Of a DNA stretch of 64,000 bases, positions 32,472-63,988 are shown in pieces. Source of the stretch: Candidatus Omnitrophota bacterium (GTDB taxonomy: Bacteria; Omnitrophota; Gorgyraeia; Gygaellales; JAQTUX01); assembly GCA_028707125.1 (NCBI GenBank), contig JAQTUX010000002.1, positions 208,355 to 272,354 on the forward strand, read 5' to 3'. The first letter of the stretch is position 1. Every line of letters starts with the position of its first letter. Below the pieces are notes generated by a model. That model had not been told where the DNA came from, did not search any database, and saw nothing but the letters and a program-made list of their open reading frames with translations. The translations under genes were made by a program, and so were the position numbers.

Positions 32472-33524
32472 TTAGCCTAGTCTAACTTTTGAGCAATATT
32501 CTGAAAACTTATCATATTTATACAATTTTCCTTGTGGTCCTAAAATTGGCGTTAATAATTTAATAAACTTATCTAAGACTTCCCTGCTAGGATCTACCAA
32601 ATACAATTCATCTAAATATAGTGGCTTTTTCTTAGAAAGACGAGACCGAACAACTTCATTTAATAATGAGTGAGCCATAAAATCAGTCTCTGGCAATGAA
32701 TACCCAACTATTATTAGAGCCTCACACTTTTCTAATGAACTTCTTGCTAAAGACCATATTGATGAATATGGCTCATCTGCGATATCTTTCGCAATCCCAG
32801 GTGGAAGTATTGAGATTCTCTCTGGCCTCGGATGCCCACTTCGTGATTTTTCAACATGTAACGGACGATCTTTTAACGCTATTCTTTTGTTATATTTATG
32901 AATAAGCCAATTTAAACTTCCATGCATTTTCAGTAGCATTACTTTACATTCGGGAAAATCATCTGGGGTTTGCGTAGTACCAAGCCATTTCTTTACCCAC
33001 CGACCAGATAGGCCTCCAATTCCGCTAACTCCATAACCGAATTTAGGATTCCAGATATTATGATTTTTCTTATTAAAAGATTCTTCGATAACTAAATCAT
33101 AATTGAATGTTATGATAACATCGCCTTTTTTTAAATTATCCAAAAGTTTTACATGACATTTACTCTGCACTGAATGTAAATGATTATTCTTAAGTTTACA
33201 GGTTGTTTGGATGTAAACCCTACGAATCAATTCCGTTAAATCTCCTAGTCGCATTGACCATTTGAATGGTTGCCCAATAGATTTTGATACAGCACAAATA
33301 CCTTCTCGAGCCTCAATATCTCTAAAATAATATTCTAAACTTACTTCAGATGTTTTTTTATATAAATCCCAAACTTGTTTAAGAACTCTACGTGCTAACT
33401 CCTGAGTGCCTCTGCCTTTAATAAGATGGGCTATATCAAAAAAATCTTTGTCTACGGGTGGAGGGATTCCTTCTTGATCGAAACCCGCCTTGGTTGCGCC
33501 AGCACCTAAAATAAATACGCGCAT
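32472..33524 (-). CDS. SIR2-like domain protein (SIR2_2/DUF4020-type, stand-alone)
   Basis: All four SIR2_2 motifs are present: FILGAGAT, VIITFNYDLVIEE, KMHGSLNW, IIVGYSLPETD. 350 aa with no fused effector or sensor domain recognised. Confidence 0.7.
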   Translation of the reverse strand: MRVFILGAGATKAGFDQEGIPPPVDKDFFDIAHLIKGRGTQELARRVLKQVWDLYKKTSEVSLEYYFRDIEAREGICAVSKSIGQPFKWSMRLGDLTELIRRVYIQTTCKLKNNHLHSVQSKCHVKLLDNLKKGDVIITFNYDLVIEESFNKKNHNIWNPKFGYGVSGIGGLSGRWVKKWLGTTQTPDDFPECKVMLLKMHGSLNWLIHKYNKRIALKDRPLHVEKSRSGHPRPERISILPPGIAKDIADEPYSSIWSLARSSLEKCEALIIVGYSLPETDFMAHSLLNEVVRSRLSKKKPLYLDELYLVDPSREVLDKFIKLLTPILGPQGKLYKYDKFSEYCSKVRLG

Positions 33525-49574: not shown

Positions 49575-50696
49575 CTACCTCCTTCTTATCAAACTACTGA
49601 CTATGCCTGATTTATTCCTTATGCCGTATGAACGATATACGCACATCAAGTAGTGCAGAGCCGTAGGGACGACACCTGAAGTATTTATACCTAAAATTTT
49701 ACCACAAGAACGGTTATTTGCCATAGGTATTATGTAGCCCGGATCCAGAGGCAGGTAACGCTTCAAGGCGAGGCCTTTCTCGCTCCTTATGATATTCTCC
49801 GCCGCCAGCGCCCCCTGCGCGACCGCGAACTGCACAGCCATCCTTAAAGGGCTCTTCCTATGATAGAAATTCGCCGCGTCCCCCACGGCAAAACATCTTT
49901 GCGCCGCCCTCAAATACCCGTCCACGTTAAGCCGGCCCTGCGGGGTTTTATCCACGCCTGAACCCGACAGGAAATCCGCGGTCTTTACGCCTGCCGCCCA
50001 AATAAGCATGGCCTTGTCAAAGGTGCCCCGGCTTGATAAAGAGACCCTGGCGCCGTTTATATTCTCTACAACGGTATTTAAAAATACCTCTATGGAAAGT
50101 TTGTTTAAATTGGCAGAAACATAGCGCTTCATCCATTCAGGAAGGGGCCCCAAAATAGAATCCGCCCTTTCAATGATCACTATTCTCCCCCGCCTCTTGT
50201 GCCTGATGAGATATCTGCGTAAATTAGCGGCTATCTCAACTCCGGTGTATCCGCCTCCCGCGATCATAAACGTCTCAAATCCTCCCCCAGCCAGCCCCTG
50301 CAGGATCTTTTCGGCGTCGCCGACATCATCCAGCTTATGCGCGTATTTCTTTACCGCTTCATTGCCGTAGAAATTGGTCTCTGATCCGGAGGAGATAAGC
50401 AGATGATCATAATTAAGATCGCCGCCGGAAGTAAAGACCATCTGTTTTCCAAGGTCAATGCCTCTTACCTCTGCGTTTATAAACCTGCACCCGCATATCC
50501 TGCTGACATCCTCAAGCCGGTTGGCTAAGAATTCAGGCCTGATCCGTTCTCCGATAATATCGGGCAGGGCAGGCAGGAAATTGAATTCTTCCTTCTTGTC
50601 TATAAGGATAATGTCCGCGTGCCCCTTGAGCTTAGAAAGCCCGCGCAACGCGCTGATGCCCGCGAACCCGCCTCCGATGATCAGTATTCTACTCAT
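49575..50696 (-). CDS. FAD-dependent pyridine-nucleotide-disulfide oxidoreductase (type II NADH dehydrogenase/SQR-like)
   Basis: Two Rossmann GxGxxG motifs (IIGGGFAG; IAGGGYTG). Confidence 0.65.
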   Translation of the reverse strand: MSRILIIGGGFAGISALRGLSKLKGHADIILIDKKEEFNFLPALPDIIGERIRPEFLANRLEDVSRICGCRFINAEVRGIDLGKQMVFTSGGDLNYDHLLISSGSETNFYGNEAVKKYAHKLDDVGDAEKILQGLAGGGFETFMIAGGGYTGVEIAANLRRYLIRHKRRGRIVIIERADSILGPLPEWMKRYVSANLNKLSIEVFLNTVVENINGARVSLSSRGTFDKAMLIWAAGVKTADFLSGSGVDKTPQGRLNVDGYLRAAQRCFAVGDAANFYHRKSPLRMAVQFAVAQGALAAENIIRSEKGLALKRYLPLDPGYIIPMANNRSCGKILGINTSGVVPTALHYLMCVYRSYGIRNKSGIVSSLIRRR

Positions 50697-51592
50697 AGTA
50701 TTAGATCCAGGATCAAAGCGATACTAAGAAACGTATGCGCCATTATAGTGATCCTGGACGATTCAACTAATTTATTCTTATCGTTATAATAACATTTCAA
50801 AATGCCGCCTGCCTTAAGAAAAACCGGTATAAAAGCAAAACTCAACAGCGCGTAGGCGCTCAGATATCCAAAGGCGATATTGACTATTATGGAAAGAAAG
50901 ACCGCGGCTATGAGCACGCGGTATAGCAGGAACGCCCTGTCCGCTCCTGTCAGCCCTACCAGCGTCCGCTTGCCTGATCTCAGATCGTCCTGGAAATCCG
51001 GAACTTCGTTAGAGAAAAGTATCATCGCGGTCAGAAAGCCGAAAGGCAAAGACAGCATGAAAGGCATTAGATCAGGGAACGCCCCTGTCTGAAGGAAATA
51101 TCCCGCCATAACAGGTGCCGGGCCAAAAAGAAGAAATACCGTAAGTTCACCCAGCCGGCGATAAGAAAGGCGCAATGGCGGGCAGGAATAGGAGAATCCC
51201 AGAAATAACACAAGCAGATAAAAGATAACCGCCAGGCCGCTGCCGAGAAGCGCGGCCAGCGTGACAATGCAGATAGAGGCCAAAGAGAAACAAATAAGCG
51301 ACAGCCGAAGGTAGAAACGCTCGGAAAAAACTCCTTCCTGTATGAGTTTTGAGCCGCCGAATAATCCGTAGGGCCTTATATCCTGCCAGTCCGTGCCTGT
51401 CTTTGAATCGGCGTAGTCATTTATAAGATTGGCGCCTAAATGAGTCGAGATTACCGCGGCCAGCCCCAGCAAGAAAGCAGTAAACCCGAAATCTGTTCTG
51501 TCTATAAGCGACCCGGCTATAAACGGAAGGATACTTGCGGTAATGAACGGCAAACGCAAAGCCCTGACGTATTTTTCAATTACCCCCATCAA
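50693..51592 (-). CDS. UbiA-family prenyltransferase (MenA-like)
   Basis: NDYADSKTGTD and EVPDFQDDLRSGKRTL Asp-rich motifs. Eight to nine TM helices. Confidence 0.7.
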   Translation of the reverse strand: MMGVIEKYVRALRLPFITASILPFIAGSLIDRTDFGFTAFLLGLAAVISTHLGANLINDYADSKTGTDWQDIRPYGLFGGSKLIQEGVFSERFYLRLSLICFSLASICIVTLAALLGSGLAVIFYLLVLFLGFSYSCPPLRLSYRRLGELTVFLLFGPAPVMAGYFLQTGAFPDLMPFMLSLPFGFLTAMILFSNEVPDFQDDLRSGKRTLVGLTGADRAFLLYRVLIAAVFLSIIVNIAFGYLSAYALLSFAFIPVFLKAGGILKCYYNDKNKLVESSRITIMAHTFLSIALILDLIL

Positions 51593-51652: not shown

Positions 51653-52693
51653 ATGATTTACAGGATAAAAAACAGGATAGAAAAAGAACTGCATGTCTTT
51701 ATCGATAAAATAGACGGGCTCTATGGGTTAAGCGGGGCATCCCCACTTCTGTTCCGATCAATAAGGGGTTTCTTCTTAAGAAAAGGCAAGAGGATCCGCC
51801 CTATCCTTTTCCTCATCGGCTACCTGGGCTTCAAAGGCAGGCAGACGAAGAACCTGTATACAAGCGCGCTATCAATTGAGCTGCTGCACGACTTTCTGCT
51901 TATCCACGACGACATCATAGACAAATCCCCCCTAAGAAGAGGCCGGCCCTCGCTGCATGAGGTATTCAACGCCTACCTGAAGAAAAAGGGCAAGGCAAAA
52001 TTCAATGGAGCGGACCTGGCGATCGTGGCCGGAGATGTAATGTACGCGGCGGCGATACACGCGTTCCTCTCCATAAAAGAAGACGCGCGGCGCAAGGAAA
52101 AGGCGTTGAGGAAGTTGATCGAGGCGGCGATCCGCACAGGGGCGGGGGAATTTATTGAATTACTGGCAGGTCTTAAAGACATCAAGGAGATAAACAAAAA
52201 CGACATCTATAAAATATACGATTACAAGACCGCCTGCTATACCTTCTCTACCCCGCTGTCGGCAGGGGCGATACTCGCCGGCGCGAAAGAGCCGCGGATA
52301 AAAAAACTGTCCGACTTCGGGATATGCGTCGGCAGGGCCTTCCAGATCAACGATGACATACTGGATATGTTCGGCGAAGAAAAGCAGACGGGCAAATCAA
52401 CGCTCACCGACCTTAAGGAATCGAAGAAGACGCTGCTTATATGGTACGCCTACAACAACTCCTCCCAGAAAGACAAGGCGTTTATCAGAAAGGCGTTCTC
52501 AAAGAAAAAAACGGGCAGATCCGACCTGTTGAAGATACGCGGGATAATAGAAGAAAGCGGCGCGCTGGATTATACGCGTAAAGAGACCAGCCGTCTTATA
52601 AAGACAGCTGAAGGCCTGCTTCTGTCTTCGGGAATGCTGCCGGAATACATCCAGGCGCTGTCGGGTTACTACAAGAACCTCCTTTGCCTATGA
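51653..52693 (+). CDS. polyprenyl diphosphate synthase (trans-IPPS family)
   Basis: FARM LIHDDIIDKS and SARM FQINDDILD motifs. Confidence 0.85.
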   Translation: MIYRIKNRIEKELHVFIDKIDGLYGLSGASPLLFRSIRGFFLRKGKRIRPILFLIGYLGFKGRQTKNLYTSALSIELLHDFLLIHDDIIDKSPLRRGRPSLHEVFNAYLKKKGKAKFNGADLAIVAGDVMYAAAIHAFLSIKEDARRKEKALRKLIEAAIRTGAGEFIELLAGLKDIKEINKNDIYKIYDYKTACYTFSTPLSAGAILAGAKEPRIKKLSDFGICVGRAFQINDDILDMFGEEKQTGKSTLTDLKESKKTLLIWYAYNNSSQKDKAFIRKAFSKKKTGRSDLLKIRGIIEESGALDYTRKETSRLIKTAEGLLLSSGMLPEYIQALSGYYKNLLCL

Positions 52694-53520
52694 AGGTCAA
52701 TATCGCCAGATCCGCGGGGTTTTGTTTCGGCGTCAAGAGGGCGCTGGCTATCGCCCTGGGCATAGCCGGAAAAAAAGGCAAGGTCTATATGCTCGGCGAC
52801 ATAGTCCATAATGAGGACGTGGTCAGGGAGATAAAAAAATCTGGCATCAAAAAGATCGGCCGCCTGGGAAAAGGCGGAGGCAAGATACTTTTGATCAGCG
52901 CGCACGGCGCGCCGGTAAAGATATTCCGTAGCGCTGCCGCGGCAGGATTCAAGGTCATGGACGCCACCTGCCCCATGGTCAAAAAGATACATAAAACCGC
53001 TCTGGACATGGAGAACAGGGGCCGCAGGATCATCATTATCGGCGACAAGAAACACAGCGAGGTCATCGGCATCCTTGGGCATCTTAAGGACAGGGCTATA
53101 GTGATCGACAACCCGGATAATATACCCGCCGGCAGGATAAAAGGTGTAAACAAGGCCGCCGTTGTCGTCCAATCTACTCAGAATATAGAAAAGGCGATCA
53201 AAATATTGAAGAGGGTAAAAAAATACGTGCCTGACCTGGTATTCTGCAATACGATCTGCAGGCCTACGACCATAAAACAGGAAGAGATAAAAAAGATGCC
53301 GCTTGAAAACGACGTGATGGTTATAATCGGTTCAAAAAACAGCGCCAATACCAGAAGATTATACGAAATATCCAAATCGCTTAATAAACGCAGCTACTGG
53401 ATACGATCAAGCGGGGATTTAAAACGGGGGTGGTTTAAAGGCGCCGGAAGCGTGGGTGTCGCCGCGGGCGCTTCAACCCCTGAATCAACCATAAACGATG
53501 TGGCAGCCGCCCTTCGCTAA
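52684..53520 (+). CDS. ispH: 4-hydroxy-3-methylbut-2-enyl diphosphate reductase
   Basis: LytB signature (ARSAGFCFGVKRA). Three conserved Cys are present. 278 aa. Confidence 0.9.
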   Translation: MPMKVNIARSAGFCFGVKRALAIALGIAGKKGKVYMLGDIVHNEDVVREIKKSGIKKIGRLGKGGGKILLISAHGAPVKIFRSAAAAGFKVMDATCPMVKKIHKTALDMENRGRRIIIIGDKKHSEVIGILGHLKDRAIVIDNPDNIPAGRIKGVNKAAVVVQSTQNIEKAIKILKRVKKYVPDLVFCNTICRPTTIKQEEIKKMPLENDVMVIIGSKNSANTRRLYEISKSLNKRSYWIRSSGDLKRGWFKGAGSVGVAAGASTPESTINDVAAALR

Positions 53521-53568
53521 CTCCTTCAGCGCCTTGCCGCCCACATATTCCCTCTCTAAATAAAACCC

Positions 53569-53757
53569 CTATTTTTCTATCTTAATAGCCTCTACAGGGC
53601 ACTGATCGGCGGCCTCCCCGCAGCTTTGTTCTGCCGAAGACGGCACAGGGTCAACATAAGCAACGGCCTTATCGCCTTCCATCTTGAATACATCGGAACA
53701 TACCTGGGTGCATAAAGAACAACCGATACAGGTATCAGCGTCAACTATCGCCTTCAT
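53569..53757 (-). CDS. 4Fe-4S ferredoxin
   Basis: CIGCSLCTQVC...CPVEAI cluster-binding motifs. 62 aa. Confidence 0.75.
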   Translation of the reverse strand: MKAIVDADTCIGCSLCTQVCSDVFKMEGDKAVAYVDPVPSSAEQSCGEAADQCPVEAIKIEK

Positions 53758-53758
53758 C

Positions 53759-54298
53759 TTATATCCCTCCTTTTTCAGGTTTATCTATATCAATTTTTCC
53801 AAAAAGTATTGTCTTTAGTAACATTATGCCATTTGCCGCGAACAGCATAAACGGAGAACCGATGTAATATTTACCGTTCTTCAGCGCTATCTGTCCGGAG
53901 CTTACCAGCCGTGAAAGCCGCCTGCCTATGATCTCTTCGGCATTATAGCGGCTGATTATCTCATCCAGGGTCAGCCCGCCGGGAGCGGAATACAGCTCTC
54001 TTAATATGCGTATCCTGCGGGCGGTCTCGCCCATATTCAGAAAATGAAAATAGGTATTCCAGAAAGCCAGGTAAATGATCGCGTTTGCCGCGAGACGGCC
54101 AAAGGTATCTATCACGGCCCCGGATGAACGGCAAATATACCCTGTCTCAAACAAGAACAGGACGAATGCCCCCGTGCCAAAACCGGTAAAAACAGACCTG
54201 AGAAGCCCGTCTCCCTTTTGGCTACGGCAGGATAATACCTGAAGAAAGGCGCCGGCCGCGAAGGCGAATACCGACGCGAAAGCACGCGCGTGTTCCAA
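53759..54298 (-). CDS. hypothetical membrane protein (tandem paralog A)
   Basis: N-terminal TM region and a C-terminal soluble domain. Shares its architecture and motifs (..GKYY/NKYKL..) with the next ORF. Confidence 0.35.
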   Translation of the reverse strand: MEHARAFASVFAFAAGAFLQVLSCRSQKGDGLLRSVFTGFGTGAFVLFLFETGYICRSSGAVIDTFGRLAANAIIYLAFWNTYFHFLNMGETARRIRILRELYSAPGGLTLDEIISRYNAEEIIGRRLSRLVSSGQIALKNGKYYIGSPFMLFAANGIMLLKTILFGKIDIDKPEKGGI

Positions 54299-54303
54299 TG
54301 GCC

Positions 54304-54825
54304 TTACCCTCCCATGCCTTTTAGCCCCAGAATACCGCGAAAGAACGTGAACAGACGGGCGACAGTTAACCCCGCTGAGCTAAGCTTATATTTATTGCCT
54401 TCCAGATAAATAAGTTTGGCCCTGAGAAGGTCTTCTATCCTTGGCTTGATCAGCGTATCGTTATTAATCTTATTTTTAAATATATTGATGTCCAGCCCCT
54501 GCTGGCGAGCCGCGGCAACGCTCAATATCATAGCGATTGAAGGGCTTTCCGCTTCTATCGCCGGATAGCTTGCTATATAGGCGCAGGACAATGATATAAA
54601 CAACAGGCAGTAGCGCAGGTATTGGTAGATACCCTGAGGCACGGCTATGCCGGATAAGGCGGCACCGGGGTTGGCCTTAAATAAAAGTATGCTGAAAGCG
54701 AAAACAACGGCGAATATATACAACAGGGCCGCGGCATGATTCTTAGGCGGGCGTGCCCTCCATATAAGAATATGAAATAGGAACGCTGCGAGAAAAAACC
54801 CCAGGCCGTAAAACAATACGCTCAT
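54304..54825 (-). CDS. hypothetical membrane protein (tandem paralog B)
   Basis: Same architecture as 53759..54298. Overlaps the upstream TIM-barrel gene by 4 nt. Confidence 0.35.
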   Translation of the reverse strand: MSVLFYGLGFFLAAFLFHILIWRARPPKNHAAALLYIFAVVFAFSILLFKANPGAALSGIAVPQGIYQYLRYCLLFISLSCAYIASYPAIEAESPSIAMILSVAAARQQGLDINIFKNKINNDTLIKPRIEDLLRAKLIYLEGNKYKLSSAGLTVARLFTFFRGILGLKGMGG

Positions 54826-55490
54826 AAACCGGAGCAGAAGTCCTTCAATTTTTTAAATTCTTCATAGGTCTGAAGCGATGCCCTGGCTTCAGAGACCACC
54901 ATCCCCCGGTAGCCGGCCCTGTTCAAGAGCCCCAACAAATACCGGCTGTGTTCCGGCGACTGATGAATGTGCGTATGCCATAGCGCCGAACCGCCGACGT
55001 AACCGGTCATATGTATATGAGAGGCCTGTTTTATCACCTTGATGAACTCTTCCTCATATATGCCGGCGCACTCCATCTCCAGGTGCTCAAGGTCCAGGCA
55101 CCTGCCGCAGCCGTACCTCCTCATAAATTTAAGCGGCTCATGCACGCTGTAAGTATTCTCAATGCAAGGCCTGACCTTGACAGCCCTAAATATAGCGGCG
55201 ATGTCCTGCCATTCATCTTCCCAGTAAATATTATGAAAAACAACGATCCCGGCGCCTATCTCTTTTGCCAGGCCGGCCAATCTACGCGGATCGTATTCAT
55301 TACTGGGGGCGTGGATGGCATACCTGAAAGAAAAATCCCCGCATAATCGCGCTATTTTATTAAAACCCTTGAGTATCTCTGAAGAGAGATACAGCTCCAC
55401 GGCCTTTATGCCGGCCTTTTGTGCAGCGGAGAGTATGCGGCGTTCAGGCGCGCATTTGACCGCGATAGTTATGTTCCGGCCTTTCGGCAT
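54822..55490 (-). CDS. sugar-phosphate isomerase/epimerase (xylose-isomerase-like TIM barrel)
   Basis: 222-aa AP-endo2/xylose-isomerase-like pattern (AVELY..., IVVFH, CIEN, H..H metal ligands). Confidence 0.5.
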   Translation of the reverse strand: MPKGRNITIAVKCAPERRILSAAQKAGIKAVELYLSSEILKGFNKIARLCGDFSFRYAIHAPSNEYDPRRLAGLAKEIGAGIVVFHNIYWEDEWQDIAAIFRAVKVRPCIENTYSVHEPLKFMRRYGCGRCLDLEHLEMECAGIYEEEFIKVIKQASHIHMTGYVGGSALWHTHIHQSPEHSRYLLGLLNRAGYRGMVVSEARASLQTYEEFKKLKDFCSGL

Positions 55491-55494
55491 AATA

Positions 55495-56625
55495 TTAAAT
55501 AAAATTGATGTGCATCGGCGCCGCGCCCTTTAGCTCCTCAAGCGAGGCATTATTGTTTTTCAGATCCCATAAAAATTCATTTACCTTATGCTGAAGGCAC
55601 AGCGTCCCGCACATTGTCCGAGGGTCGAATTTTTCCGAAGCCAGCAGATCCATCACTTCCCAATAACGCTTGCCCTGCCAGATCTCCTTAAAAGACGTAT
55701 CCGCTATGTTGCCGATATGGAATCTTTTATACTTTTCGTTGAACAGCATACCGCAGGGTGCTACCAGGCCGGAGCCGGACAGCTGCACGATAAAAGGCGG
55801 CCCATAGCAGCGCCCGTAGCCGCGTTTTCCGCCGCTTAAGACCTTGGACCACTTTACCTTGACCAGATAATCCCTGTCAGAATAACCCTCCGCCTCTTTT
55901 AAGATATCTACCAGGCCAAAGTAGGCGGGATAATCAACCTTTAAATTACCATCCTCGTCATCGCTGCAGTGCTTGATGACCGCGTAATCCACCCCTGATT
56001 CCTTTCCCAGTTTCGCGAAAGGAATGATCTGTTCGGAAAACTGGGGCAATAAAACCATCTGCAACCCCAGAGTGACTTCAAGTCCGCTCTTTTTCTTGAT
56101 CTCAACGCATTTCTTTATGGTGTTATAAACCTTGTTGAAGCATTCTTCCTTGCAGCCCATTATGCGGGCGTAAGCGGAGGGGGTGGCCGCTGAGATATTG
56201 AACCGAAGATACGTCAGGCAGGGCAGTATCTCCTCCAGGCGCTCGTCCTTTAACAAAAATCCGTTCGTGCCCAGCGCCATATCCAGGCCGTTACCTTTAC
56301 CCTTTAAAATAGCGTCATATAAATGAGGAGAGCAGGTACTTTCTCCGTCACTGACAAAGCTTACCGCCTTTACCCCGATCTCGGCGGCATCATCCAGGAA
56401 ACGGAATATGACCTCGCGCGTCATCTTTTTCTCGTCATTTTCCTGCAGCCGGCCGTAACAATAGACACATCTATAAGTGCACCTTCTGGTCAAGGCGCAG
56501 TCCACCGTAATGGGCGCGATCCTTTCCCCGCGCAGCCAGCTCTCCACCCTTTCTTTATGCCAGTTAAGCTTATGGCCGTCCAGGACCAGATCATCCATTG
56601 ATCCGCCTTGCCGATAATGAGTCAT
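55495..56625 (-). CDS. radical SAM/SPASM-domain protein (paralog 2 of 3)
   Basis: CTYRCVYC cluster motif. C-terminal Cys-rich region with PCG...GNI...FKEIW...C..LC. The N-terminal about 40 aa and the C-terminal LWDL tail are shared with the other two paralogs. Confidence 0.75.
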   Translation of the reverse strand: MTHYRQGGSMDDLVLDGHKLNWHKERVESWLRGERIAPITVDCALTRRCTYRCVYCYGRLQENDEKKMTREVIFRFLDDAAEIGVKAVSFVSDGESTCSPHLYDAILKGKGNGLDMALGTNGFLLKDERLEEILPCLTYLRFNISAATPSAYARIMGCKEECFNKVYNTIKKCVEIKKKSGLEVTLGLQMVLLPQFSEQIIPFAKLGKESGVDYAVIKHCSDDEDGNLKVDYPAYFGLVDILKEAEGYSDRDYLVKVKWSKVLSGGKRGYGRCYGPPFIVQLSGSGLVAPCGMLFNEKYKRFHIGNIADTSFKEIWQGKRYWEVMDLLASEKFDPRTMCGTLCLQHKVNEFLWDLKNNNASLEELKGAAPMHINFI

Positions 56626-57364
56626 CGCTGAACCTTCGCCTGTCTAATTTTGTTTCGGAACTGAAATAAATATCCCTGACTAATCTTAGATACCCTTTTA
56701 TTACCCGGAACAGGCTGGGAAAAGAGACCGCCTTGGAAGAGCCGGAATGCCTCATCCCCAGCCGGTAAGGGACCTCGGCAAAAAGGTAGCCCTTCGTGAC
56801 CAGCCGTATCAACATATCGGTCTGGAAGAAAAACCCGCTGCTCTGGTGCTTCAAGCCGGACAATATGGATTTTCTGTATAACACCGTTCCGTTGGTATAA
56901 TTCAACGTAACCCCGAAAGTCGTATTGATAATAAATCTGTAGATAAATGACAAGGCGTTCCTCAATACGGAGCGCACCCATTTATTATAATTAAAGGGGA
57001 TCACTATATCCACATGTTCAAGAAGCATCGCGTAGCGCATGATCTCCCAGGGGTCGTTCTCATTGTCCCCCGGCAGCATGCATACCGCGTTGCCCCGCGC
57101 CTCCCTGACCCCATCCCAGAAAGAAACGCCTATGCCTTTAGGCGCGGAGTGGTTAATGATCCGGATATTTCCGGCGTGTTCGCTTATTTTGCGTTGAACG
57201 ATCTCGGGCGTCGCGTCGCTGCTGCCGTCATTAATTACCACTATCTCTCCGTCAATACCGGAGGCCTTAAAGGCAGAAAGGGTGTTGTCAAGCGCTAAAG
57301 AAATGTTTTTCTCTTCATTAAGCGCCGGCATTATGATACTTAAGAACAATTTATTACCTTCCAT
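56591..57364 (-). CDS. family 2 glycosyltransferase (polyprenyl-phosphate sugar synthase / DPM1-ArnC-like)
   Basis: LSIIMPALNEEKNI with DxD-type motifs (VINDGSSD; LPGDNE). 257-aa soluble GT-A. 35-nt overlap with the radical SAM gene. Confidence 0.8.
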   Translation of the reverse strand: MEGNKLFLSIIMPALNEEKNISLALDNTLSAFKASGIDGEIVVINDGSSDATPEIVQRKISEHAGNIRIINHSAPKGIGVSFWDGVREARGNAVCMLPGDNENDPWEIMRYAMLLEHVDIVIPFNYNKWVRSVLRNALSFIYRFIINTTFGVTLNYTNGTVLYRKSILSGLKHQSSGFFFQTDMLIRLVTKGYLFAEVPYRLGMRHSGSSKAVSFPSLFRVIKGYLRLVRDIYFSSETKLDRRRFSDDSLSARRING

Positions 57365-57368
57365 AATA

Positions 57369-58421
57369 TTAATCCGCTCTTAAGAGTTTCTTGGCCTCAA
57401 GGACGACCCTGTCTGTATCGGGATAATAGGCCTTTTCCAGGGCGGGGCTGCAGGGGGTCGGAGTATCCGGCAGCGTAAGGCGCCGGACAGGGGACTTTAA
57501 ATATTTAAATGCCGACTCCATCAAGAAGGAAGATATCTCGGAGCTTATGCCGCCGAACTTATAACCGAAATCCAGCACCAGCGCCCTTCCCGTCTTCTTA
57601 ACGGAGGCGAGGATCAGATCATGATCCAACGGCCTTACTGTGCGCAGGTCCAGCACTTCTATGTCTATGCCGTCTTTTCCCAACCTCATAGCCGCTTCCT
57701 GAGCCAGCGTTACCATGAACGAATCGGCGATGACGGTCAGGTCCCTGCCCTCTCTCCTTAACACAGCTTTACCCAGAGGCACAAAATAAGCCTCCTTAGG
57801 CACCGCCTCCTTATGGTCGTAAAGCCAGCGGTGCTCGATAAATATCACGGGCGAATCACCGGCTATGCTGGATAAAAGCAGTCCCTTGGCGTCATAGGCG
57901 CAGGAAGGCATAACAACCTTTAAGCCGGGGACATGGGTAAATAACGCCTGGATCGGCTGAGAGTGCTGGGCTGCCGAGCCCCAGCCGCCCCCTATTATCG
58001 CCCTTACAACCATGGGTACGCTGACCTTTCCCCCAAACATATATTTCCATTTTGCCGCGTGGTTAATAAGCTGATCCATGGTCAGGAGCATAAAATCGGT
58101 GCGCATGTGGACCAGGACCGGCCTTAAACCGCCCAGTGAAGAACCGATAGCGATCCCCGTCAAGGTATTTTCGCATAGAGGCGTGTCAAAAACCCGTTCC
58201 CTCCCAAACTCTTTATGAAGATCGAGAGTTGTGCCGAATACGCCTCCGGCATCATCCACCCCTTCCCCAAAAATGAAGGCGCGCTTATCCTCTTTTAACG
58301 CCAGATATAATGCCTCACGTATCGCCTCTCTATAGGTGGCCATTCTCCCTTTTGACCGGCCGCTATCGTCATTCAAGGTCTTTATGGTGGACAGGTCTAT
58401 CGGCGCCTTATCCCACGACAT
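57369..58421 (-). CDS. thiamine-diphosphate-dependent 2-oxoacid dehydrogenase E1 component beta subunit (transketolase C-terminal-like)
   Basis: E1-beta signatures (FGEGV...GG.FG.T..L...FG..RVFDTP..E). 350 aa. Confidence 0.85.
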   Translation of the reverse strand: MSWDKAPIDLSTIKTLNDDSGRSKGRMATYREAIREALYLALKEDKRAFIFGEGVDDAGGVFGTTLDLHKEFGRERVFDTPLCENTLTGIAIGSSLGGLRPVLVHMRTDFMLLTMDQLINHAAKWKYMFGGKVSVPMVVRAIIGGGWGSAAQHSQPIQALFTHVPGLKVVMPSCAYDAKGLLLSSIAGDSPVIFIEHRWLYDHKEAVPKEAYFVPLGKAVLRREGRDLTVIADSFMVTLAQEAAMRLGKDGIDIEVLDLRTVRPLDHDLILASVKKTGRALVLDFGYKFGGISSEISSFLMESAFKYLKSPVRRLTLPDTPTPCSPALEKAYYPDTDRVVLEAKKLLRAD

Positions 58422-58423
58422 GC

Positions 58424-59443
58424 TTAGTATACCCCCTTATATAATTCCTTTTCTTCGGGATACGGACTGCCCAGGGCGAAATCAAGCGCCTCGGAGATCT
58501 CTTTATCCGCCTTCTTTTCCAGCCCTGCCAGTTCCTTCTCTTTAACCAGGCCGTTTTTCAAAACATGCTGCCGGAATTTCTTCAAAGGGCATTTCTTAAA
58601 CCACTCCTCAACTTCCTCCGCGTCCCTTAGCCCTTTTTCAATATCCGTTTCCGGCCCCACGTGCGTCTTCCATCTGTAAGTCCGCGCCTCGATCAAAGAA
58701 GGCCCCCGGCCGTCCCTGGCCCTGCCGATACACTCCTTCGCTGTTTTATAAACCTCCAGGACATCGTTGCCGTCTATGCATTTACCGGGTACGTGAAAGA
58801 AATCGGCTATTTTATAAATGTCTATATTTGCCTGCCGGTCTCTCTGAGGAGAATTCGTGGCGTAAGAATTATTTTCACATACAAAAACCACCGGCAGTTT
58901 CTTTAACGCGGAAAAATTCAGCGTCTCATAAAATACGCCTTCGTCCACCGCGCCGTCCCCGAAAAATACCGTGGTGACCCTTTTGTCTTTTTTCATCTTT
59001 GAAGACAACGCCGCGCCCGCGGCTATGGGTATGCCTCCCGCCACTATAGCGGAGGTGCCCATTATCCCATGCTCCGTTGACACCATATGCATGGAGCCGC
59101 CCTTGCCCTCAGAACAACCGGCGCTTCTTCCGTAAAGCTCCGCGAACATGGAATCAAGCTGCATACCCTTGGCAATTAAATGGCCGTGATTGCGATGATT
59201 GCTGAAAATATAATCATCCTTCCTCAGGTTGGCGCAGAAGCCCACCGCGATAGCCTCCTGCCCGATGCACAGATGGACCGGGCAGCGGATCTCCTGCCCG
59301 GGATAAAGCTCGATCACCTTCTCTTCAAACCGCCTTATCTTTACCAGGTAATAATATAGATTTTTAAGGACGGCGGGGCCGACCAGCGGATTCTTCATCT
59401 CTATATGAAATTTACGTGCTCCGGAGGGTTTTTCAGGTCCCAA
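58424..59443 (-). CDS. thiamine-diphosphate-dependent 2-oxoacid dehydrogenase E1 component alpha subunit
   Basis: TPP-binding GDG(X)n N motif (FFGDGAVDEG...ENN). 339 aa. Confidence 0.85.
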   Translation of the reverse strand: MGPEKPSGARKFHIEMKNPLVGPAVLKNLYYYLVKIRRFEEKVIELYPGQEIRCPVHLCIGQEAIAVGFCANLRKDDYIFSNHRNHGHLIAKGMQLDSMFAELYGRSAGCSEGKGGSMHMVSTEHGIMGTSAIVAGGIPIAAGAALSSKMKKDKRVTTVFFGDGAVDEGVFYETLNFSALKKLPVVFVCENNSYATNSPQRDRQANIDIYKIADFFHVPGKCIDGNDVLEVYKTAKECIGRARDGRGPSLIEARTYRWKTHVGPETDIEKGLRDAEEVEEWFKKCPLKKFRQHVLKNGLVKEKELAGLEKKADKEISEALDFALGSPYPEEKELYKGVY

Positions 59444-60465
59444 AGGTACCTGTTTATCTCATCCAGGCGGCAGACCTCGCGGCAATCCTCAATACGCCAC
59501 TTTTTATCCATCATTTCCTTTACCTTTTTTCTCTTTTCGCCCTTCCAGATATCCTCAAAGCCTTCTTTGTAAATATTGCCGTAGCGAAAACGCTCGTCGC
59601 CTAAAAAGGCGCTGCAGGCATAAAGGTCGCCTTTTGAAGAAAGGTAGGCCCAGAACGGAAGCCCGTAGCACTTACGATATGTCTTCTCCTGGTCGATCTT
59701 AAGCATGGTCCTTTTCCTGAATATAACCCTGAAATCATCATCAACGTATTTCTTAAGTTCGTTTTCCAGGAATAAGAGCTTTCCATAATCCAGGTCTGTC
59801 TTAAGGCGGTTGATGCTCGAGGGATGCTGGGAATAAGGTTTTATTGTCAAATAATCCGCCCCTATTTCTTTCAGGATGCCGGCCAGCGTTGTGACTTCAT
59901 CATAGTTCTCATTCAAAAGAAGGAATTGGACCCCCAGCGTGCACCTGTGCCCCCTGGATTCTTTCTCTCCGGCCGCCTCTTTGATGTTATCAATGACCCT
60001 GTCAAAATCCTCCGGTTTTGTCCCGTGAATAGCGGCGTATGTCTTCCTTGTCCCCGCGTTAAGGCTTATCCTGAACCAGCTGAGGTGAGGAAGTATCTTC
60101 AGCGCGATATCTTTAGACAACAAAACGCCGTTAGAGGTGATCGATATATCCAGGCCGCCGGCCTTCGCGTGCGCTATTAATTCCGCGATATCCTTATGCA
60201 GCAACGGCTCTCCCTCGCCGGCAAACATTATACTCTTAACCCCTCTCCTGGATATATCCGTTAAGAACTTCTTAAGCGCGGATGTCTCTAAAAAGACGGG
60301 CTTATATCCCAGATAATCAAGGGCGCAGAACATACAACGGTGGTTGCAGCTTCCGCAGGGCGCTATTTCAACGTAAATAGGATAAATATCCCTGCCGTTA
60401 AGCCAGTCCGCCACCCTTTCAGGATGGAAGGCAAGCTTATGGCTGTCTATGCGGTATGTGTCCAT
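59401..60465 (-). CDS. radical SAM/SPASM-domain protein (paralog 3 of 3)
   Basis: CNHRCMFC cluster motif, AGEGEP SAM motif, and a C-terminal C...GNI...FEDIW...C..VC region. Ends in YLWDLKNPPEHVNFI, almost identical to paralog 2. Confidence 0.75.
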   Translation of the reverse strand: MDTYRIDSHKLAFHPERVADWLNGRDIYPIYVEIAPCGSCNHRCMFCALDYLGYKPVFLETSALKKFLTDISRRGVKSIMFAGEGEPLLHKDIAELIAHAKAGGLDISITSNGVLLSKDIALKILPHLSWFRISLNAGTRKTYAAIHGTKPEDFDRVIDNIKEAAGEKESRGHRCTLGVQFLLLNENYDEVTTLAGILKEIGADYLTIKPYSQHPSSINRLKTDLDYGKLLFLENELKKYVDDDFRVIFRKRTMLKIDQEKTYRKCYGLPFWAYLSSKGDLYACSAFLGDERFRYGNIYKEGFEDIWKGEKRKKVKEMMDKKWRIEDCREVCRLDEINRYLWDLKNPPEHVNFI

Positions 60466-61015
60466 GATCTTGTATATTATCGGCTATAAGATGGCAGATC
60501 GCCAGATGGCTGATCTCTACGAATCCGTAAGAGCGTGAGGGGACATAGAAATTTATCTCCCCCATCTTCCTCAATGGATTATTTTTATCAAAACCTGAGA
60601 GCGTGGCTATAAAACAACCGCGCTTTTTTGCCTCTGCCGTGGCGTTCAGTATATTTTTGGACCTGCCTGAACTGCTTATAGAGAACAGGATATCGCCTCT
60701 TTTGGCAAGCATCTTAACGGGCACCTGAAAGACATGCTCATATCCCAGATCATTGCTAAGACAGGTGATAAGCGAGGTATCGTTAAAGGCCACCGCGGGT
60801 ACGCGGCAGTTCTTAAGAAAATCCGTGGATATGTGGCTTGCAATAGAGGCGCTGCCTCCGTTGCCTATCAGGATGACATTGTTGCCCTTTTTGCCCTGCT
60901 TGATGATTACGCCGACTATCTTATCTACGGCCCTGATAAAAGGAAGCGCCTTTCCCTTTCTATCTTTTACCTCTGTCTTACCAAGAGTTTCATTTAGGTC
61001 TTCAAAGTATCTCAT
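60437..61015 (-). CDS. SIS-domain sugar-phosphate isomerase (GmhA-like D-sedoheptulose-7-phosphate isomerase)
   Basis: 192 aa with ILIGNGGSASIASH...SSSG. Its size and motifs match phosphoheptose isomerase. Confidence 0.7.
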   Translation of the reverse strand: MRYFEDLNETLGKTEVKDRKGKALPFIRAVDKIVGVIIKQGKKGNNVILIGNGGSASIASHISTDFLKNCRVPAVAFNDTSLITCLSNDLGYEHVFQVPVKMLAKRGDILFSISSSGRSKNILNATAEAKKRGCFIATLSGFDKNNPLRKMGEINFYVPSRSYGFVEISHLAICHLIADNIQDHGHIPHRQP

Positions 61016-61028
61016 AGTTTTCCTCTAC

Positions 61029-61044
61029 ACACGTAAGTGCGGGG
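61029..61044 (-). repeat. intercistronic motif ACACGTAAGTGCGGGG (copy 2 of the 10216-10235 hairpin motif)
   Basis: Lies between the kinase/transferase stop and the SIS gene RBS. Same core and same position relative to RBS and ATG as copy 1. Confidence 0.45.
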
Positions 61045-61046
61045 TC

Positions 61047-62666
61047 TCATTTCAATAATGTGGTTATATACTTGAACAACGGCGCCGGCTCAACCGAGGC
61101 CTTATTACCCACGATCATCACCTTCATCGCTCCGACGGCGTTGCCTATAAAGCCGACGGCCTCTATCGGCATATTATTAAAGACGCAGGGCGCGGTTATG
61201 GAAAAATAGGCGTCGCCCGCGCCGATCCTGTCCACTACTTCCTTGGAAAATACGGGGATCTCCGTAAAGCCGTCTTTCTTAGAATAAGCCAGAGAACCCT
61301 TGTGTCCCCTGGTAATGATTATCTTGCCGCAGCTTAGCCGCCTGCTCATATCTATAATGATCTTTTCCAGGTTGGAAAACCTGTCCTGGAAAGCCAGGCG
61401 TATCTCCGGCTCGTCTATGCACACATAGTCGGCCCTGGGAAATTTCGTGATCAGGTTAAACCCTATGTTGGAGCTGTTGGTCTGGACATTGACCGCGAGA
61501 AACTTTGCCTTCCTGGAAAGAACATCAACTATAGCCGGAGTGATCAGCCCGTGGCCGAAATCCGTGGCTATTACCATATCAAATTTCCTAAGATTGGCAT
61601 TAAGGTAGCCGACTATTTTCTTCTCAATATCTTTGGAAAGGCGCGGGGTTCCGTCAAGATAGCATATCTCAAACAACTTAGTCAAAAAATTCGGGTCAAC
61701 AAACCTGCGTTTGACTATCGTATGCGCGTCCCGGCAATTATAAATGTTCGGCTTGATGTTTGGTTTTAAATGCCCGGCAATAAAATCCCGGTAATCATTC
61801 TTCGTTCCCGCGCAGCTGAGAAGCGAGGCCTGCCTGCAGAACCCCGCCAGATGATTGGATGCCGCCAGTACCCCTCCGGCAAAGATATCTTCGTTTAGAA
61901 ACCTGGCCGCGATTATGTTGTCCTTCTGCGTCTTTGCCATGCCGATGCAATAATGGTATTCATCTATGATAATATCGCCTATGACCAGGACCTTTACCTT
62001 TTCTACATCCTTAAGCGCCTTTATCAAGCCCTGCGCGCTATAGCGCTTTTTGAACCTGGAAAAGAACTCCTTTGACTCCTCCGGATGGGGGGCAAGATAG
62101 GCGTTTATAAGCGACGATGAGCTGAATGTTATCTCGTCGGTAAAATGGATAACGCCGCCTACGGCCTTGACCGCCTCCTCTTCCTCAAGGATCTTTCCCG
62201 TTACGTCATCCTGCCTCATGGCGTAGTCACTGCCCTTAACGTAAAAGCGCGGCTTTAATCTTTTTATGGTTTCTACCGCTGTAGGCCATTCATTGACAGC
62301 CACAAAATCAACGCACTCTATCGCGGCGATGCTCTCCGCGCGCAGGTTCTGATTAAATACCGGCCTGCCCGGGCCCCGGTTCACATACTCGTCCTTAGTC
62401 AGGGTAACCACCAATATATCGCCCTTTTTACTGGCGGCCTCAAAATGCTTTATGTGCCCTGGGTGCAGCAGGTCAAACACACCGTGGCAATGCACTACCT
62501 TCCTGCCCTTTTTCCTCAATGACGCCAGGATCGCGGCAAGCTCATCTATCGTCTTGATTTTATTGTGCGCGTCTCTTAACATATTCTTCACCTGGAAAGG
62601 TATCTGAACCAGTCCTTCGTGGCCTCCTCGATCTTCTCCGGAGTCCACACAGGCGCCTGCTTCCAA
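61047..62666 (-). CDS. bifunctional sugar kinase/nucleotidyltransferase (HldE/RfaE-like with reversed domain order: N-terminal cytidylyltransferase-like, C-terminal PfkB kinase)
   Basis: N-terminal domain with CHGVFDLLHPGHIKH (HxGH nucleotidyltransferase motif). C-terminal PfkB domain with GAGDAYF and GDIIIDEY. Confidence 0.75.
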   Translation of the reverse strand: MEAGACVDSGEDRGGHEGLVQIPFQVKNMLRDAHNKIKTIDELAAILASLRKKGRKVVHCHGVFDLLHPGHIKHFEAASKKGDILVVTLTKDEYVNRGPGRPVFNQNLRAESIAAIECVDFVAVNEWPTAVETIKRLKPRFYVKGSDYAMRQDDVTGKILEEEEAVKAVGGVIHFTDEITFSSSSLINAYLAPHPEESKEFFSRFKKRYSAQGLIKALKDVEKVKVLVIGDIIIDEYHYCIGMAKTQKDNIIAARFLNEDIFAGGVLAASNHLAGFCRQASLLSCAGTKNDYRDFIAGHLKPNIKPNIYNCRDAHTIVKRRFVDPNFLTKLFEICYLDGTPRLSKDIEKKIVGYLNANLRKFDMVIATDFGHGLITPAIVDVLSRKAKFLAVNVQTNSSNIGFNLITKFPRADYVCIDEPEIRLAFQDRFSNLEKIIIDMSRRLSCGKIIITRGHKGSLAYSKKDGFTEIPVFSKEVVDRIGAGDAYFSITAPCVFNNMPIEAVGFIGNAVGAMKVMIVGNKASVEPAPLFKYITTLLK

Positions 62667-63580
62667 TAGTCGATCTTATTCAACATCATCTTTACCCCCT
62701 CTTCAAAGGAAACAGAGGCCTGCCATCTTAACATTTTCTTGATCTTTAGAATATCCGCGTGCGTGCGGTCCGGCTCGCCCGGGCGCTTTGGGACATAAAC
62801 CGCTTCCCCTCCCATAAGTTTTACCAGATGGTTAACGCTCTGCGGGCTGCCTGAGCCGACATTAAAGATTTCTCCTTCTATGCCGGACGAAGCCGCCTTT
62901 ACGAAGGCATCAGCCACATCTGTGACAAAAATAAAATCCCTGGCCTGACTGCCGTCACCTACTATCGTAAAGGGCTTACCTGCCAGTTTCTGCGCCAGAA
63001 ATACCCCAAAGACAGCGCCGTAGGCGCCGGATGTCCTTGAGCGCGGCCCGTAAACATTAAACAGCCGAAGCGATACCGCGGGCAGCTTATAAAGCTTAAC
63101 CCAATGCGACAGGTACTGTTCGCCGATATATTTTGTAAGGGCGTAAGGGTACATCGGCCTTATCGCCGCTGTCTCGGAAGTGGGAAATTTATCGGGTATG
63201 CCGTAACAGGAAGAAGAGGCGGCGTAGACAAAGCGCCTGGCGCCGTTCAGGCGCGCCGCTTCTAAAACATTGACTGTGCCGTCCACGTTGGCCCTATGGT
63301 ATTTAAGCGGCTCCTGGACCGAGGGCACTATATCGGCTAATGCCGCCAGATGGAATACCCAGTCAACCCCCTCAAAGAACGGCTTGATCTCAGAGAAATC
63401 AGACACGTCTGCCCGCTGAAAAAGCAGATTCTTGTTGCCTTTAAGGTGGTTGAGGTTCTCTATCCTGCCGTTGGATAAATTATCCAGGACAACCACTTGA
63501 TGGCCGTCTGCCAACAGGCGCTCTGCCAGATGGCTGCCGATAAAACCCGCCCCTCCCGTAACCAAAGCACGCGCTTTCAT
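62588..63580 (-). CDS. NAD-dependent epimerase/dehydratase (extended SDR; UDP-sugar 4-epimerase or decarboxylase-like)
   Basis: TGGAGFIGSHL Rossmann motif and YxxxK (YALTK). 330 aa. Confidence 0.8.
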   Translation of the reverse strand: MKARALVTGGAGFIGSHLAERLLADGHQVVVLDNLSNGRIENLNHLKGNKNLLFQRADVSDFSEIKPFFEGVDWVFHLAALADIVPSVQEPLKYHRANVDGTVNVLEAARLNGARRFVYAASSSCYGIPDKFPTSETAAIRPMYPYALTKYIGEQYLSHWVKLYKLPAVSLRLFNVYGPRSRTSGAYGAVFGVFLAQKLAGKPFTIVGDGSQARDFIFVTDVADAFVKAASSGIEGEIFNVGSGSPQSVNHLVKLMGGEAVYVPKRPGEPDRTHADILKIKKMLRWQASVSFEEGVKMMLNKIDYWKQAPVWTPEKIEEATKDWFRYLSR

Positions 63581-63676
63581 AAGGATATTATTTTATATCA
63601 ATATGCCAATAATGTCAATAAAATAGGGACAACGAATTCTGCGCGCCATCCCTGTTTAGCAGAAGCTTAACTTCTT

Positions 63677-63988
63677 TTATTTTAAGCGGTTATAGAGATT
63701 GACCAGATAAACGCCTATACCGAAAGCGCTGCCCAGGGCGGCCAGCCCCACGTCGCGGACCTCCCCTACTCTGTAGGGCAGAAAGTACTGAAACGTTTCA
63801 TCTATAGATGAAACCAACAGGCAGAAAAAAAATGAGAATACAACAGAGGCAAGAACACGCTTGTTTCCTATTGTATCCCTTAAGGCAAGCCATCCTAAAA
63901 CGCCGTATTTCATAATATGCAGGCGCTCTTCAATTATATGCATCTGTGAAATGTAGATAAGCGCCGATAAAAGAATCGGAAGCAACAA
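63677..63988 (-). CDS. VanZ-like family membrane protein
   Basis: DETFQYFLPYRVGEVRDV pattern. Small 3-4 TM protein. Second VanZ-like gene in the window. Confidence 0.45.
   Translation of the reverse strand: MLLPILLSALIYISQMHIIEERLHIMKYGVLGWLALRDTIGNKRVLASVVFSFFFCLLVSSIDETFQYFLPYRVGEVRDVGLAALGSAFGIGVYLVNLYNRLK

Follow-up and report, generated by a model that had tools for sequence, protein, structure and literature searches.

Two radical SAM enzymes, a lone thiamine-dependent E1 pair and a non-canonical heptose-like module share an operon in an Omnitrophota bacterium

In the genome of a Candidatus Omnitrophota bacterium (GenBank assembly GCA_028707125.1, contig JAQTUX010000002.1), we analyzed a stretch of 64,000 nucleotides (positions 208,355 to 272,354, hereafter the window) and found toward its end an operon that combines two radical S-adenosylmethionine (SAM) enzymes, the two subunits of a thiamine-dependent E1 and a heptose-like sugar-activation module. 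Because this gene set recurs across many bacterial phyla and in DPANN archaea, it probably makes a modified surface sugar. More specifically, we consider it fairly likely that the product of the operon is a tailored heptose-like sugar, activated with a nucleotide and exported for use in a surface glycan, and that it arises by a two-carbon, radical-assisted route. The novelty lies in the uncharacterised radical SAM pair and the non-canonical heptose-like module; sugar-nucleotide tailoring with a two-carbon thiamine step is of a known kind. Neither the family libraries nor the searchable full-text literature (subscription-only papers aside) names this gene combination, in agreement with an initial annotation, made from the sequence alone, that had not recognised it as a described pathway.

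The operon consists of eleven genes on the minus strand (53759-63580; all coordinates are those of the window, and all operon genes lie on this strand), which are assigned to a single operon because neighbouring genes abut or overlap by a few bases. In order, they encode an extended short-chain dehydrogenase/reductase (SDR), an HldE-like fusion of a nucleotidyltransferase and a kinase, a SIS sugar-phosphate isomerase, a first radical SAM enzyme (radical SAM 1), E1 alpha, E1 beta, a GT2 glycosyltransferase, a second radical SAM enzyme (radical SAM 2), a TIM-barrel protein and two membrane proteins, A and B. We describe here the domain content and operon structure of these genes, and the conserved coupling of their radical SAM family with thiamine-dependent and heptose-type genes.

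Results

Conservation of the gene neighbourhood

A scan of one genome per species yielded 80 loci with orthologues of radical SAM 1 (45-66% identity); open reading frames (ORFs) were called in all of these loci and clustered, and recurrent clusters were annotated. Partner genes were counted within 7 kb of radical SAM 1 in the 37 loci that extend for at least 5 kb on both sides of it (full loci). The 80 loci come from more than ten phyla: Omnitrophota, Planctomycetota, Desulfobacterota, Campylobacterota, Alpha-, Beta- and Gammaproteobacteria, Nitrospirota, Elusimicrobia, relatives of Cyanobacteria, Bacillota, and six DPANN archaea. A thiamine-dependent enzyme is present in 34 of the 37 full loci, against a chance of about 5% for such a span (a rough estimate that assumes about ten thiamine enzymes per genome). 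An HldE-like, SIS or GT9 (heptosyltransferase family) gene is found in 31 of the 37, and radical SAM 2 in 21; at 17 loci the GT9 gene lies directly beside radical SAM 1. The initial annotation had made its reading depend on conservation of the neighbourhood in relatives, and these thiamine and heptose-type counts bear that conservation out. Four non-orthologous kinds of thiamine partner occur (E1 alpha/beta, a split transketolase, a mini-E1 pair, and an enzyme of the acetolactate synthase (ALS)/YerE type), which argues that the chemistry has been selected for and not one gene lineage. The commonest form is the split transketolase-like pair (21/37 full loci).

Gene order is shuffled among loci of the same content (our loci L013, L021, L064, L066, L076 and L085). 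The Nitrosospira and Nitrospira loci (L064 and L066) run radical SAM 1, SDR, SIS, HldE-like gene, E1 alpha, E1 beta and, further on, radical SAM 2; L013 runs radical SAM 1, SIS, HldE-like gene, E1 alpha, E1 beta, radical SAM 2, then at a distance membrane protein A and GT2, and further on the SDR. A Nitrospirota contig (L085) matches the operon almost gene for gene over the stretch that starts with the HldE-like gene and ends with membrane protein B. Gene fusions involve the same partners: fusions of SIS with radical SAM 1 form a cluster of 4 proteins from at least 5 contigs, and a cytidylyltransferase-like domain is fused to radical SAM 1 in three separate clusters at 50% identity, one of them with four members. 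These fusions tie the radical SAM enzyme independently to the isomerase and to the nucleotidyltransferase; a tentative fusion with a complete ALS-type thiamine enzyme, found on a single contig, ties it tentatively to the thiamine enzyme as well. A fusion of a methyltransferase with radical SAM 1 is also present.

Other loci hold genes for which the window has no counterpart: representatives of GT9, transketolase, NeuB, NTP-transferase, NUDIX, GSU2086-family and HAD proteins from the related loci had no match in the window. The GSU2086 family, an accessory neighbour in other loci, appears in the family libraries without a function. A small radical SAM protein of about 280 residues (Radical_SAM and Fer4_12) recurs beside the GT9 gene in L016, L029, L045, L053, L060, L062, L077 and others, and follows membrane protein B in L007 and L011; the window lacks it. 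The only close plasmid match to the cassette is pDCAR1 of Solidesulfovibrio carbinolicus (133 kb; locus L083, 69846-94907), where the HldE-like, GSU2086-family, SIS and radical SAM 1 genes have NeuB-family, PseF, transketolase, ATP-grasp and additional radical SAM genes as neighbours, and where the annotated record calls the gene just ‘radical SAM protein’. This bacterium is a cultured sulfate reducer and a tractable host.

Two paralogous radical SAM enzymes

Radical SAM 1 (59401-60465) and radical SAM 2 (55495-56625; probable start at the ATG at 56598, giving 367 residues) both match the Pfam families Radical_SAM and SPASM, the latter at 33.8 and 32.4 bits. They are paralogues (32% identity in a pairwise alignment) with the same N- and C-terminal motifs and the same four-cysteine site. 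Radical SAM 1 carries CxxxCxxC at C40/C44/C47, and the conserved motifs of the family are K10, H14 and W21 near the N-terminus and H350, N352 and F353 near the C-terminus. In an alignment of 36 family members, radical SAM 2 included, the only invariant C-terminal cysteines are C266, C284, C328 and C332; their pattern, CX13GX4C ... CX3C, falls short of the seven-cysteine SPASM motif. The four conserved cysteines suggest that both enzymes hold one auxiliary cluster and are twitch-like. The two radical SAM/SPASM enzymes of the initial annotation are therefore there in number and in domain matches, but a full SPASM domain is not.

All NCBIfam scores of the two proteins are far below cut-off. The top match of both is the tungsten-enzyme maturase W_rSAM_matur (92 bits for radical SAM 1, cut-off 380); rSAM_desII gives 49 bits (cut-off 450) and rSAM_BlsE 42.9 bits (cut-off 400). 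By sequence, the solved structures nearest to radical SAM 1 are BlsE (7.6e-9) and DesII (5e-6). An AlphaFold2 model of radical SAM 1 (predicted local distance difference test score, pLDDT, 91.8) has DesII (8hzv) as its closest fold in Foldseek, with a template modelling (TM) score of 0.70-0.75, followed by SuiB, BlsE, SkfB, anSME, viperin and MoaA. DesII and BlsE act on nucleotide-linked sugars. The likeness of the predicted fold to DesII and BlsE fits a sugar context; its margin over the peptide maturases is small, and the fold alone does not decide the substrate. A role as a maturase of a cofactor or of a ribosomally synthesised and post-translationally modified peptide (RiPP) was considered and rejected: no gene for a RiPP precursor or a target enzyme was found in the operon and none recurs in the 80 loci, the family scores are below threshold, and the sugar and thiamine context is conserved.

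An exhaustive search of 1.84 billion representative proteins returned 606 representatives of the radical SAM 1 family (50% identity, E<=1e-30), the fusions described above among them, and an exact copy of radical SAM 1 is present on a Logan metagenome contig. Orthologues of radical SAM 2 (54-78% identity) occur in about 25 loci. In one family member, P0187 (631 residues), an intein that includes an HNH endonuclease is inserted close to the beginning of the radical SAM domain. The window itself encodes a third paralogue (8532-9590, minus strand) that is 30% identical to radical SAM 1 and shares the terminal motifs and the C-terminal four-cysteine pattern. Its immediate downstream neighbour is a DUF1015 gene (7254-8531), followed by an AccD-like carboxyltransferase gene (6412-7251), a context that does not look like sugar metabolism.

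A lone thiamine-dependent E1 pair

The two E1 genes are placed between radical SAM 1 and GT2. E1 alpha (58424-59443), a thiamine-diphosphate subunit, matches Pfam E1_dh at 266 bits and has the GDG...NN motif; it scores 343 bits with NCBIfam PDH_E1_alph_y (cut-off 394), and matches the E1 alpha of human pyruvate dehydrogenase (PDH) in the PDB at 2e-57. E1 beta (57369-58421) contains pyrimidine-binding and transketolase C-terminal domains (Pfam Transket_pyr and Transketolase_C) and scores 334 bits with NCBIfam PRK09212, above the subfamily cut-off of 321. Orthologues of E1 alpha (40-56% identity) adjoin radical SAM 1 in about 21 loci, and E1 beta is paired with E1 alpha in related loci. No E2 or E3 was found in the operon and about 20 other window ORFs (Pfam), in the translations of 36-53.6 kb, or in the 10 kb past the window end on contig L001, a search that left about 20 larger ORFs, mostly at 24-36 kb, unscanned; in the ORFs scanned and in those 10 kb, the pair is thus as solitary as the initial annotation had described it.

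We propose that E1 alpha/beta is the donor of a pyruvate-derived two-carbon unit. According to a paper on paulomycin biosynthesis (PMC4425429), two-carbon branches on sugars were known to arise by just two mechanisms: the PDH-like AviB1/AviB2 and the thiamine flavoprotein YerE. Both of these described types of branching enzyme, the PDH-like E1 alpha/beta and the ALS/YerE type, replace each other beside the radical SAM 1 family, and this interchange lends support to the two-carbon thiamine step that the initial annotation had read from the E1 pair.

The sugar-activation module

The SDR, the first gene of the operon (62588-63580), matches Pfam Epimerase at 216 bits. Its score with the NCBIfam GalE model (189 bits, cut-off 262) is higher than that with the heptose 6-epimerase/HldD model TIGR02197 (heptose_epim; 125.6 bits, cut-off 274.6), and its nearest solved structures are UDP-glucose 4-epimerases (7ys8 at 7e-60). 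It carries AASSSCYG and YxxxK and is without the Asp-Glu (TDE) dyad of 4,6-dehydratases; judged by its sequence, it is an extended SDR of the nucleoside diphosphate (NDP)-sugar 4-epimerase/oxidoreductase type. Homologues at 56-67% identity occur in about 20 related loci, and at 23 of the 37 full loci radical SAM 1 has an SDR of the same cluster in its vicinity.

The nucleotidyltransferase-kinase fusion (61047-62666) matches Pfam CTP_transf_like at residues 61-185 and PfkB at residues 406-518. Its domains are those of HldE in reversed order, with the nucleotidyltransferase at the N-terminus (46-188) and the PfkB kinase at the C-terminus (218-530); HPGH is found in the cytidylyltransferase-like part and GAGD in the PfkB sugar kinase part. 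Scores with the HldE model NF008454 (141.7 bits, cut-off 521), rfaE_dom_II (104 bits, cut-off 181.5) and rfaE_dom_I (91 bits, cut-off 345) are all below cut-off, and PDB matches of the nucleotidyltransferase domain include the putative cytidylyltransferase 5x9q and the ‘LPS core biosynthesis protein’ 3glv. The true start of the protein is probably the ATG at 62582 (about 511 residues); its orthologues in L083 and L085 have 509-510 residues. The GmhA-like isomerase (60437-61015; Pfam SIS_2), whose gene overlaps radical SAM 1 by 29 bases, scores 96.6 bits with the gmhA model TIGR00441 (cut-off 209.45), and its top PDB matches are all phosphoheptose isomerases (5ltz at 6e-24).

The initial annotation had spoken of NDP-heptose-type enzymes. 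The SIS isomerase, the PfkB/nucleotidyltransferase fusion and the epimerase-type SDR are all present, but none reaches the cut-off of a heptose-pathway model. Pfam and NCBIfam searches among the eleven operon genes (and these only) found no HAD phosphatase of the GmhB type. Because of the low NCBIfam scores, the reversed domain order and the lack of GmhB in the operon, the activation genes are, on these comparisons, not those of the ordinary pathway to the heptose of the lipopolysaccharide (LPS) core. The annotation had itself named ordinary ADP-heptose genes of this kind, next to unrelated cofactor-maturation radical SAM enzymes, as a finding that would overturn its reading; this explanation was rejected.

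Glycosyltransferase, TIM barrel and membrane proteins

The GT2 protein (56591-57364; Pfam Glycos_transf_2, GT-A fold) is weakly similar to Dol-P-Man synthase (5mlz, 2e-10) and ArnC (4.5e-10), its nearest PDB entries. Its NCBIfam matches are all far under their cut-offs (41 bits with ArnC, cut-off 529), and a hydropathy scan predicted no membrane helix or hydrophobic segment. Orthologues with 49-64% identity are found in about 14 loci, where radical SAM 2 is usually the next gene; many loci lack a GT2. The protein had been called a polyprenyl-phosphate-sugar synthase; the GT2 domain is there, but the polyprenyl-phosphate role is weak, with E values of about 1e-10 and no predicted membrane segment.

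The remaining soluble protein (54822-55490) has a weak match to the xylose-isomerase-like Pfam family AP_endonuc_2 (23 bits, below cut-off). Its AlphaFold2 model (pLDDT 85.9) is a TIM barrel with D-allulose and L-ribulose 3-epimerases, UlaE, the C-deglycosidase DgpB/C and an O-glycoside beta-eliminase as best Foldseek matches. These fold relatives are metal-dependent enzymes that work beside a sugar keto group. Some of its 278 homologues are named ‘sugar phosphate isomerase/epimerase’, and it takes the same position in L085, L007 and L046. This gene is most likely the one read earlier as a second SDR epimerase/dehydratase: only one SDR is found in the operon, and the remaining soluble gene is the TIM barrel by its Pfam match, model and fold search. 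A homologue also lies inside a large sugar cluster of another Omnitrophota genome (L084; CP070780, 1130563-1151234), together with two ALS-type thiamine enzymes, an E1 alpha/beta pair and a split transketolase, an unusual concentration of thiamine enzymes for one glycan locus. That cluster further contains a sulfotransferase with ATP sulfurylase, a B12-binding radical SAM enzyme and aminotransferases.

Membrane protein A (54304-54825) is predicted from hydropathy to have three N-terminal helices followed by a soluble C-terminal part, and hydropathy likewise marks membrane protein B (53759-54298), the product of the final gene. Neither belongs to a Pfam or NCBIfam family, and BLASTP found no similarity between them. 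Protein A is kept after radical SAM 2 in L007, L011, L013, L021, L046 and L085, and protein B beside protein A in L007, L011, L046 and L085.

Operon boundaries and neighbouring genes

Twelve co-directional ORFs on the minus strand occupy 53759-63988, as the initial annotation had it when it listed twelve mostly overlapping genes. One of them, a VanZ family gene (63677-63988; Pfam), does not belong with the others, and the operon is reduced to eleven. This ORF is clipped at the window end; on contig L001 it encodes 165 residues and overlaps the preceding Pyr_redox_2 (thioredoxin-reductase-like) gene of a rubrerythrin/rubredoxin operon. VanZ accompanies the cluster in 0 of the 80 related loci, and a promoter-like gap precedes the SDR; VanZ was accordingly assigned to the upstream redox operon and rejected as a member of the system.

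The only gaps around the operon are at 53521-53758 and 63581-63676. The latter, the 96-base gap between VanZ and SDR upstream of the SDR gene, holds the top-scoring promoter-like site of the region, TTGACA-17-TAAAAT (63618-63590, minus strand), a match to the sigma-70-like consensus at 11 of 12 positions. The number of sigma-70-like sites in the region does not exceed the expectation from shuffling, and it is the position alone that supports this candidate promoter. At the other end, an IspH-like gene (52684-53520, plus strand) converges on membrane protein B; beyond it, reading of the translations by eye, as for IspH, places a polyprenyl synthase-like gene (51653-52693, plus strand), a UbiA-type prenyltransferase gene (50693-51592) and an NDH-2-like oxidoreductase gene (49575-50696). 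A link of the operon to the bordering isoprenoid/quinone genes (50.7-53.5 kb) was rejected: the IspH-like and polyprenyl-synthase-like genes are read in the direction opposite to the operon, and neither the three isoprenoid genes nor the NDH-2-like gene recur at the related loci. We treat the nearness of the isoprenoid genes as coincidence.

Elsewhere in the window, GC content drops from about 0.50 to about 0.38 between 19289 and 36000. The 3' end of a gene (18180-19367) for a MiaB-like radical SAM protein, in which no TRAM domain was detected, is overlapped by a large serine recombinase gene (19289-20932), and the low-GC stretch also encodes DUF3631 and DUF3854 proteins, a C5 DNA methylase (30059-31435) and a SIR2-like protein (32472-33524). 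The stretch is probably an integrated mobile element carrying defence genes, which may have inserted into miaB. No tRNA gene was found in the window, and an exact-protein look-up for precomputed annotation of a mid-window protein returned no record.

Discussion

A possible route, and its known relatives

We envisage the following route. The SIS isomerase would convert a ketose phosphate, most simply sedoheptulose 7-phosphate, into an aldose phosphate, and the kinase/nucleotidyltransferase fusion would activate the sugar as an NDP-sugar. The SDR, radical SAM 1 (with its DesII/BlsE-like predicted fold and one auxiliary cluster), or both would then create a carbonyl or deoxy-keto position. The orphan E1 alpha/beta would decarboxylate pyruvate, and the hydroxyethyl or acetyl unit would be joined to the carbonyl, as by AviB1/B2 and YerE; the TIM barrel, as a keto-sugar epimerase- or eliminase-like enzyme, and radical SAM 2 would complete the tailoring. 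In the weakest step of the scheme, a lipid carrier or the envelope might receive the sugar from GT2 and the two small membrane proteins.

Parts of this scheme resemble known systems. YerE (yersiniose), AviB1/AviB2 and Pau11/Pau12 (eurekanate, paulomycose) share with the operon a thiamine enzyme without E2/E3 within a sugar cluster. These known pathways, however, start from 4-keto-6-deoxy hexoses made by 4,6-dehydratases and include no radical SAM enzymes, whereas the operon has two of these, a GmhA/HldE-like module and an SDR that lacks the dyad of the dehydratases, with transketolase-like and mini-E1 partners at loci elsewhere. The ADP-L-glycero-beta-D-manno-heptose pathway (GmhA, HldE, GmhB, HldD) draws on the same families (SIS, PfkB, cytidylyltransferase-like and SDR, with GT9 in related loci), from which the operon differs in its scores below cut-off, its reversed bifunctional protein, its lack of GmhB and an SDR nearer to GalE than to HldD. 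Among sugar radical SAM enzymes (DesII, BlsE, BtrN and AprD4), DesII ranks first by fold and BlsE by sequence, and radical SAM 1 has a single set of auxiliary cysteines as in twitch enzymes; yet its identity to these enzymes is only 16-19%, and it has N- and C-terminal motifs of its own. A GT2 closest to Dol-P-Man synthase and ArnC that is followed by two small membrane proteins recalls ArnC with ArnE/ArnF. Unlike in the Arn system, the GT2 here has no predicted membrane helices, the membrane proteins are longer than ArnE/F and have soluble C-terminal parts, and no GT-C transferase is found in the operon. In the lincosamide GDP-octose route (LmbR, LmbN, LmbP, LmbK and LmbO), a C-C bond former, a GmhA-like isomerase, a kinase and a nucleotidyltransferase lead to a higher-carbon NDP-sugar; this route employs a transaldolase instead of a thiamine enzyme, includes a phosphatase and has no radical SAM enzymes. 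Its logic may be shared with the operon.

Weighing the alternatives

Several observations weigh against a tailored heptose-like sugar as the product. The radical SAM family has no characterised member. The SIS isomerase, the fusion protein and the SDR are far under the heptose cut-offs and GmhB is missing from the operon, so the sugar may not be a heptose. Most thiamine partners are transketolase-like and could extend a chain rather than branch it. The fold of radical SAM 1 is only slightly nearer to DesII than to the peptide maturase SuiB. Many loci, mainly in Omnitrophota, Planctomycetota and DPANN, consist of GT9, radical SAM 1, a thiamine pair, GT2 and radical SAM 2 without SIS, HldE-like or SDR genes; most proteobacterial loci lack GT2 and the membrane proteins; and the co-occurrence counts may be inflated by the transfer of whole glycan islands.

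An unlikely alternative, though the strongest of those we considered, is chain extension: the thiamine enzyme would add two carbons to a sugar phosphate, SIS would isomerise the product, the kinase/nucleotidyltransferase would activate it and the radical SAM enzymes would act later, giving a C8 or C9 sugar by the logic of the lincosamide octose. The prevalence of split transketolase-like pairs as partners (21 of the 37 full loci) and the fusion of SIS to radical SAM 1 speak for this order of events, as do the strong divergence of SIS and the kinase/nucleotidyltransferase from GmhA/HldE and the lack of GmhB in the operon, which suggest a substrate other than a heptose. The partner in the window, however, is an E1 of the PDH type, and a pyruvate donor would give a 1-deoxy-ketose, which an aldose-ketose isomerase of the SIS type should not be able to convert at C1-C2; partners of the ALS/YerE type likewise use pyruvate, and many loci have the thiamine and radical SAM genes without SIS or the kinase. 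We regard it as still less probable that the cassette tailors, or gives a side group to, a sugar of the nonulosonic-acid type, with an end product that is not a heptose. NeuB-family, CMP-sugar synthetase (CTP_transf_3), NeuC-like, DegT and PseB-like genes do adjoin the cassette in Campylobacterota loci, on pDCAR1 and in L085, but only about 9 of the 80 loci contain NeuB, the window has neither NeuB nor an NTP-transferase or related gene, and separate glycan pathways often cluster without common intermediates.

It is very improbable that ordinary ADP-heptose genes of the LPS core stand here by chance beside unrelated radical SAM maturases of cofactors or peptides. Such a juxtaposition would agree with the tungsten-enzyme maturase as top NCBIfam match of both proteins, with the SPASM match, which is typical of peptide maturases, and with the high fold similarity to SuiB, SkfB and anSME. 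The maturase matches are nevertheless all far under cut-off, the operon leaves no space for the gene of a precursor peptide and encodes no target enzyme, and the heptose-like genes are non-canonical; the conserved neighbourhood, the shuffled gene order and the fusions all tie the radical SAM enzymes to sugar and thiamine genes.

Implications

Beyond this operon, we tentatively suggest that radical SAM 1 and 2 represent an uncharacterised family, shared by bacteria and DPANN archaea, whose partners are thiamine-dependent carboligases, with radical chemistry making or processing the site at which two carbons are joined, and that the products are new branched or chain-extended heptose-derived envelope sugars in Omnitrophota, DPANN, Nitrospira, Nitrosospira, sulfate reducers and Campylobacterota; we would place the odds of this broader proposal somewhat below even. 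If it is true, there would be a third, radical-assisted route to two-carbon-modified sugars beside YerE and AviB, and a function for a radical SAM family of several hundred clusters at 50% identity that databases name only ‘radical SAM protein’. There would also be a surface sugar common to many uncultured lineages and to some cultured, testable bacteria, with Malaciobacter halophilus DSM 18005, Desulfobacter latus AcRS2 and Solidesulfovibrio carbinolicus DSM 3852 as candidate carriers of the cassette. Such sugars shape antigenicity as well as phage and host recognition, and they may also influence how ultra-small Omnitrophota and DPANN cells attach to other cells.

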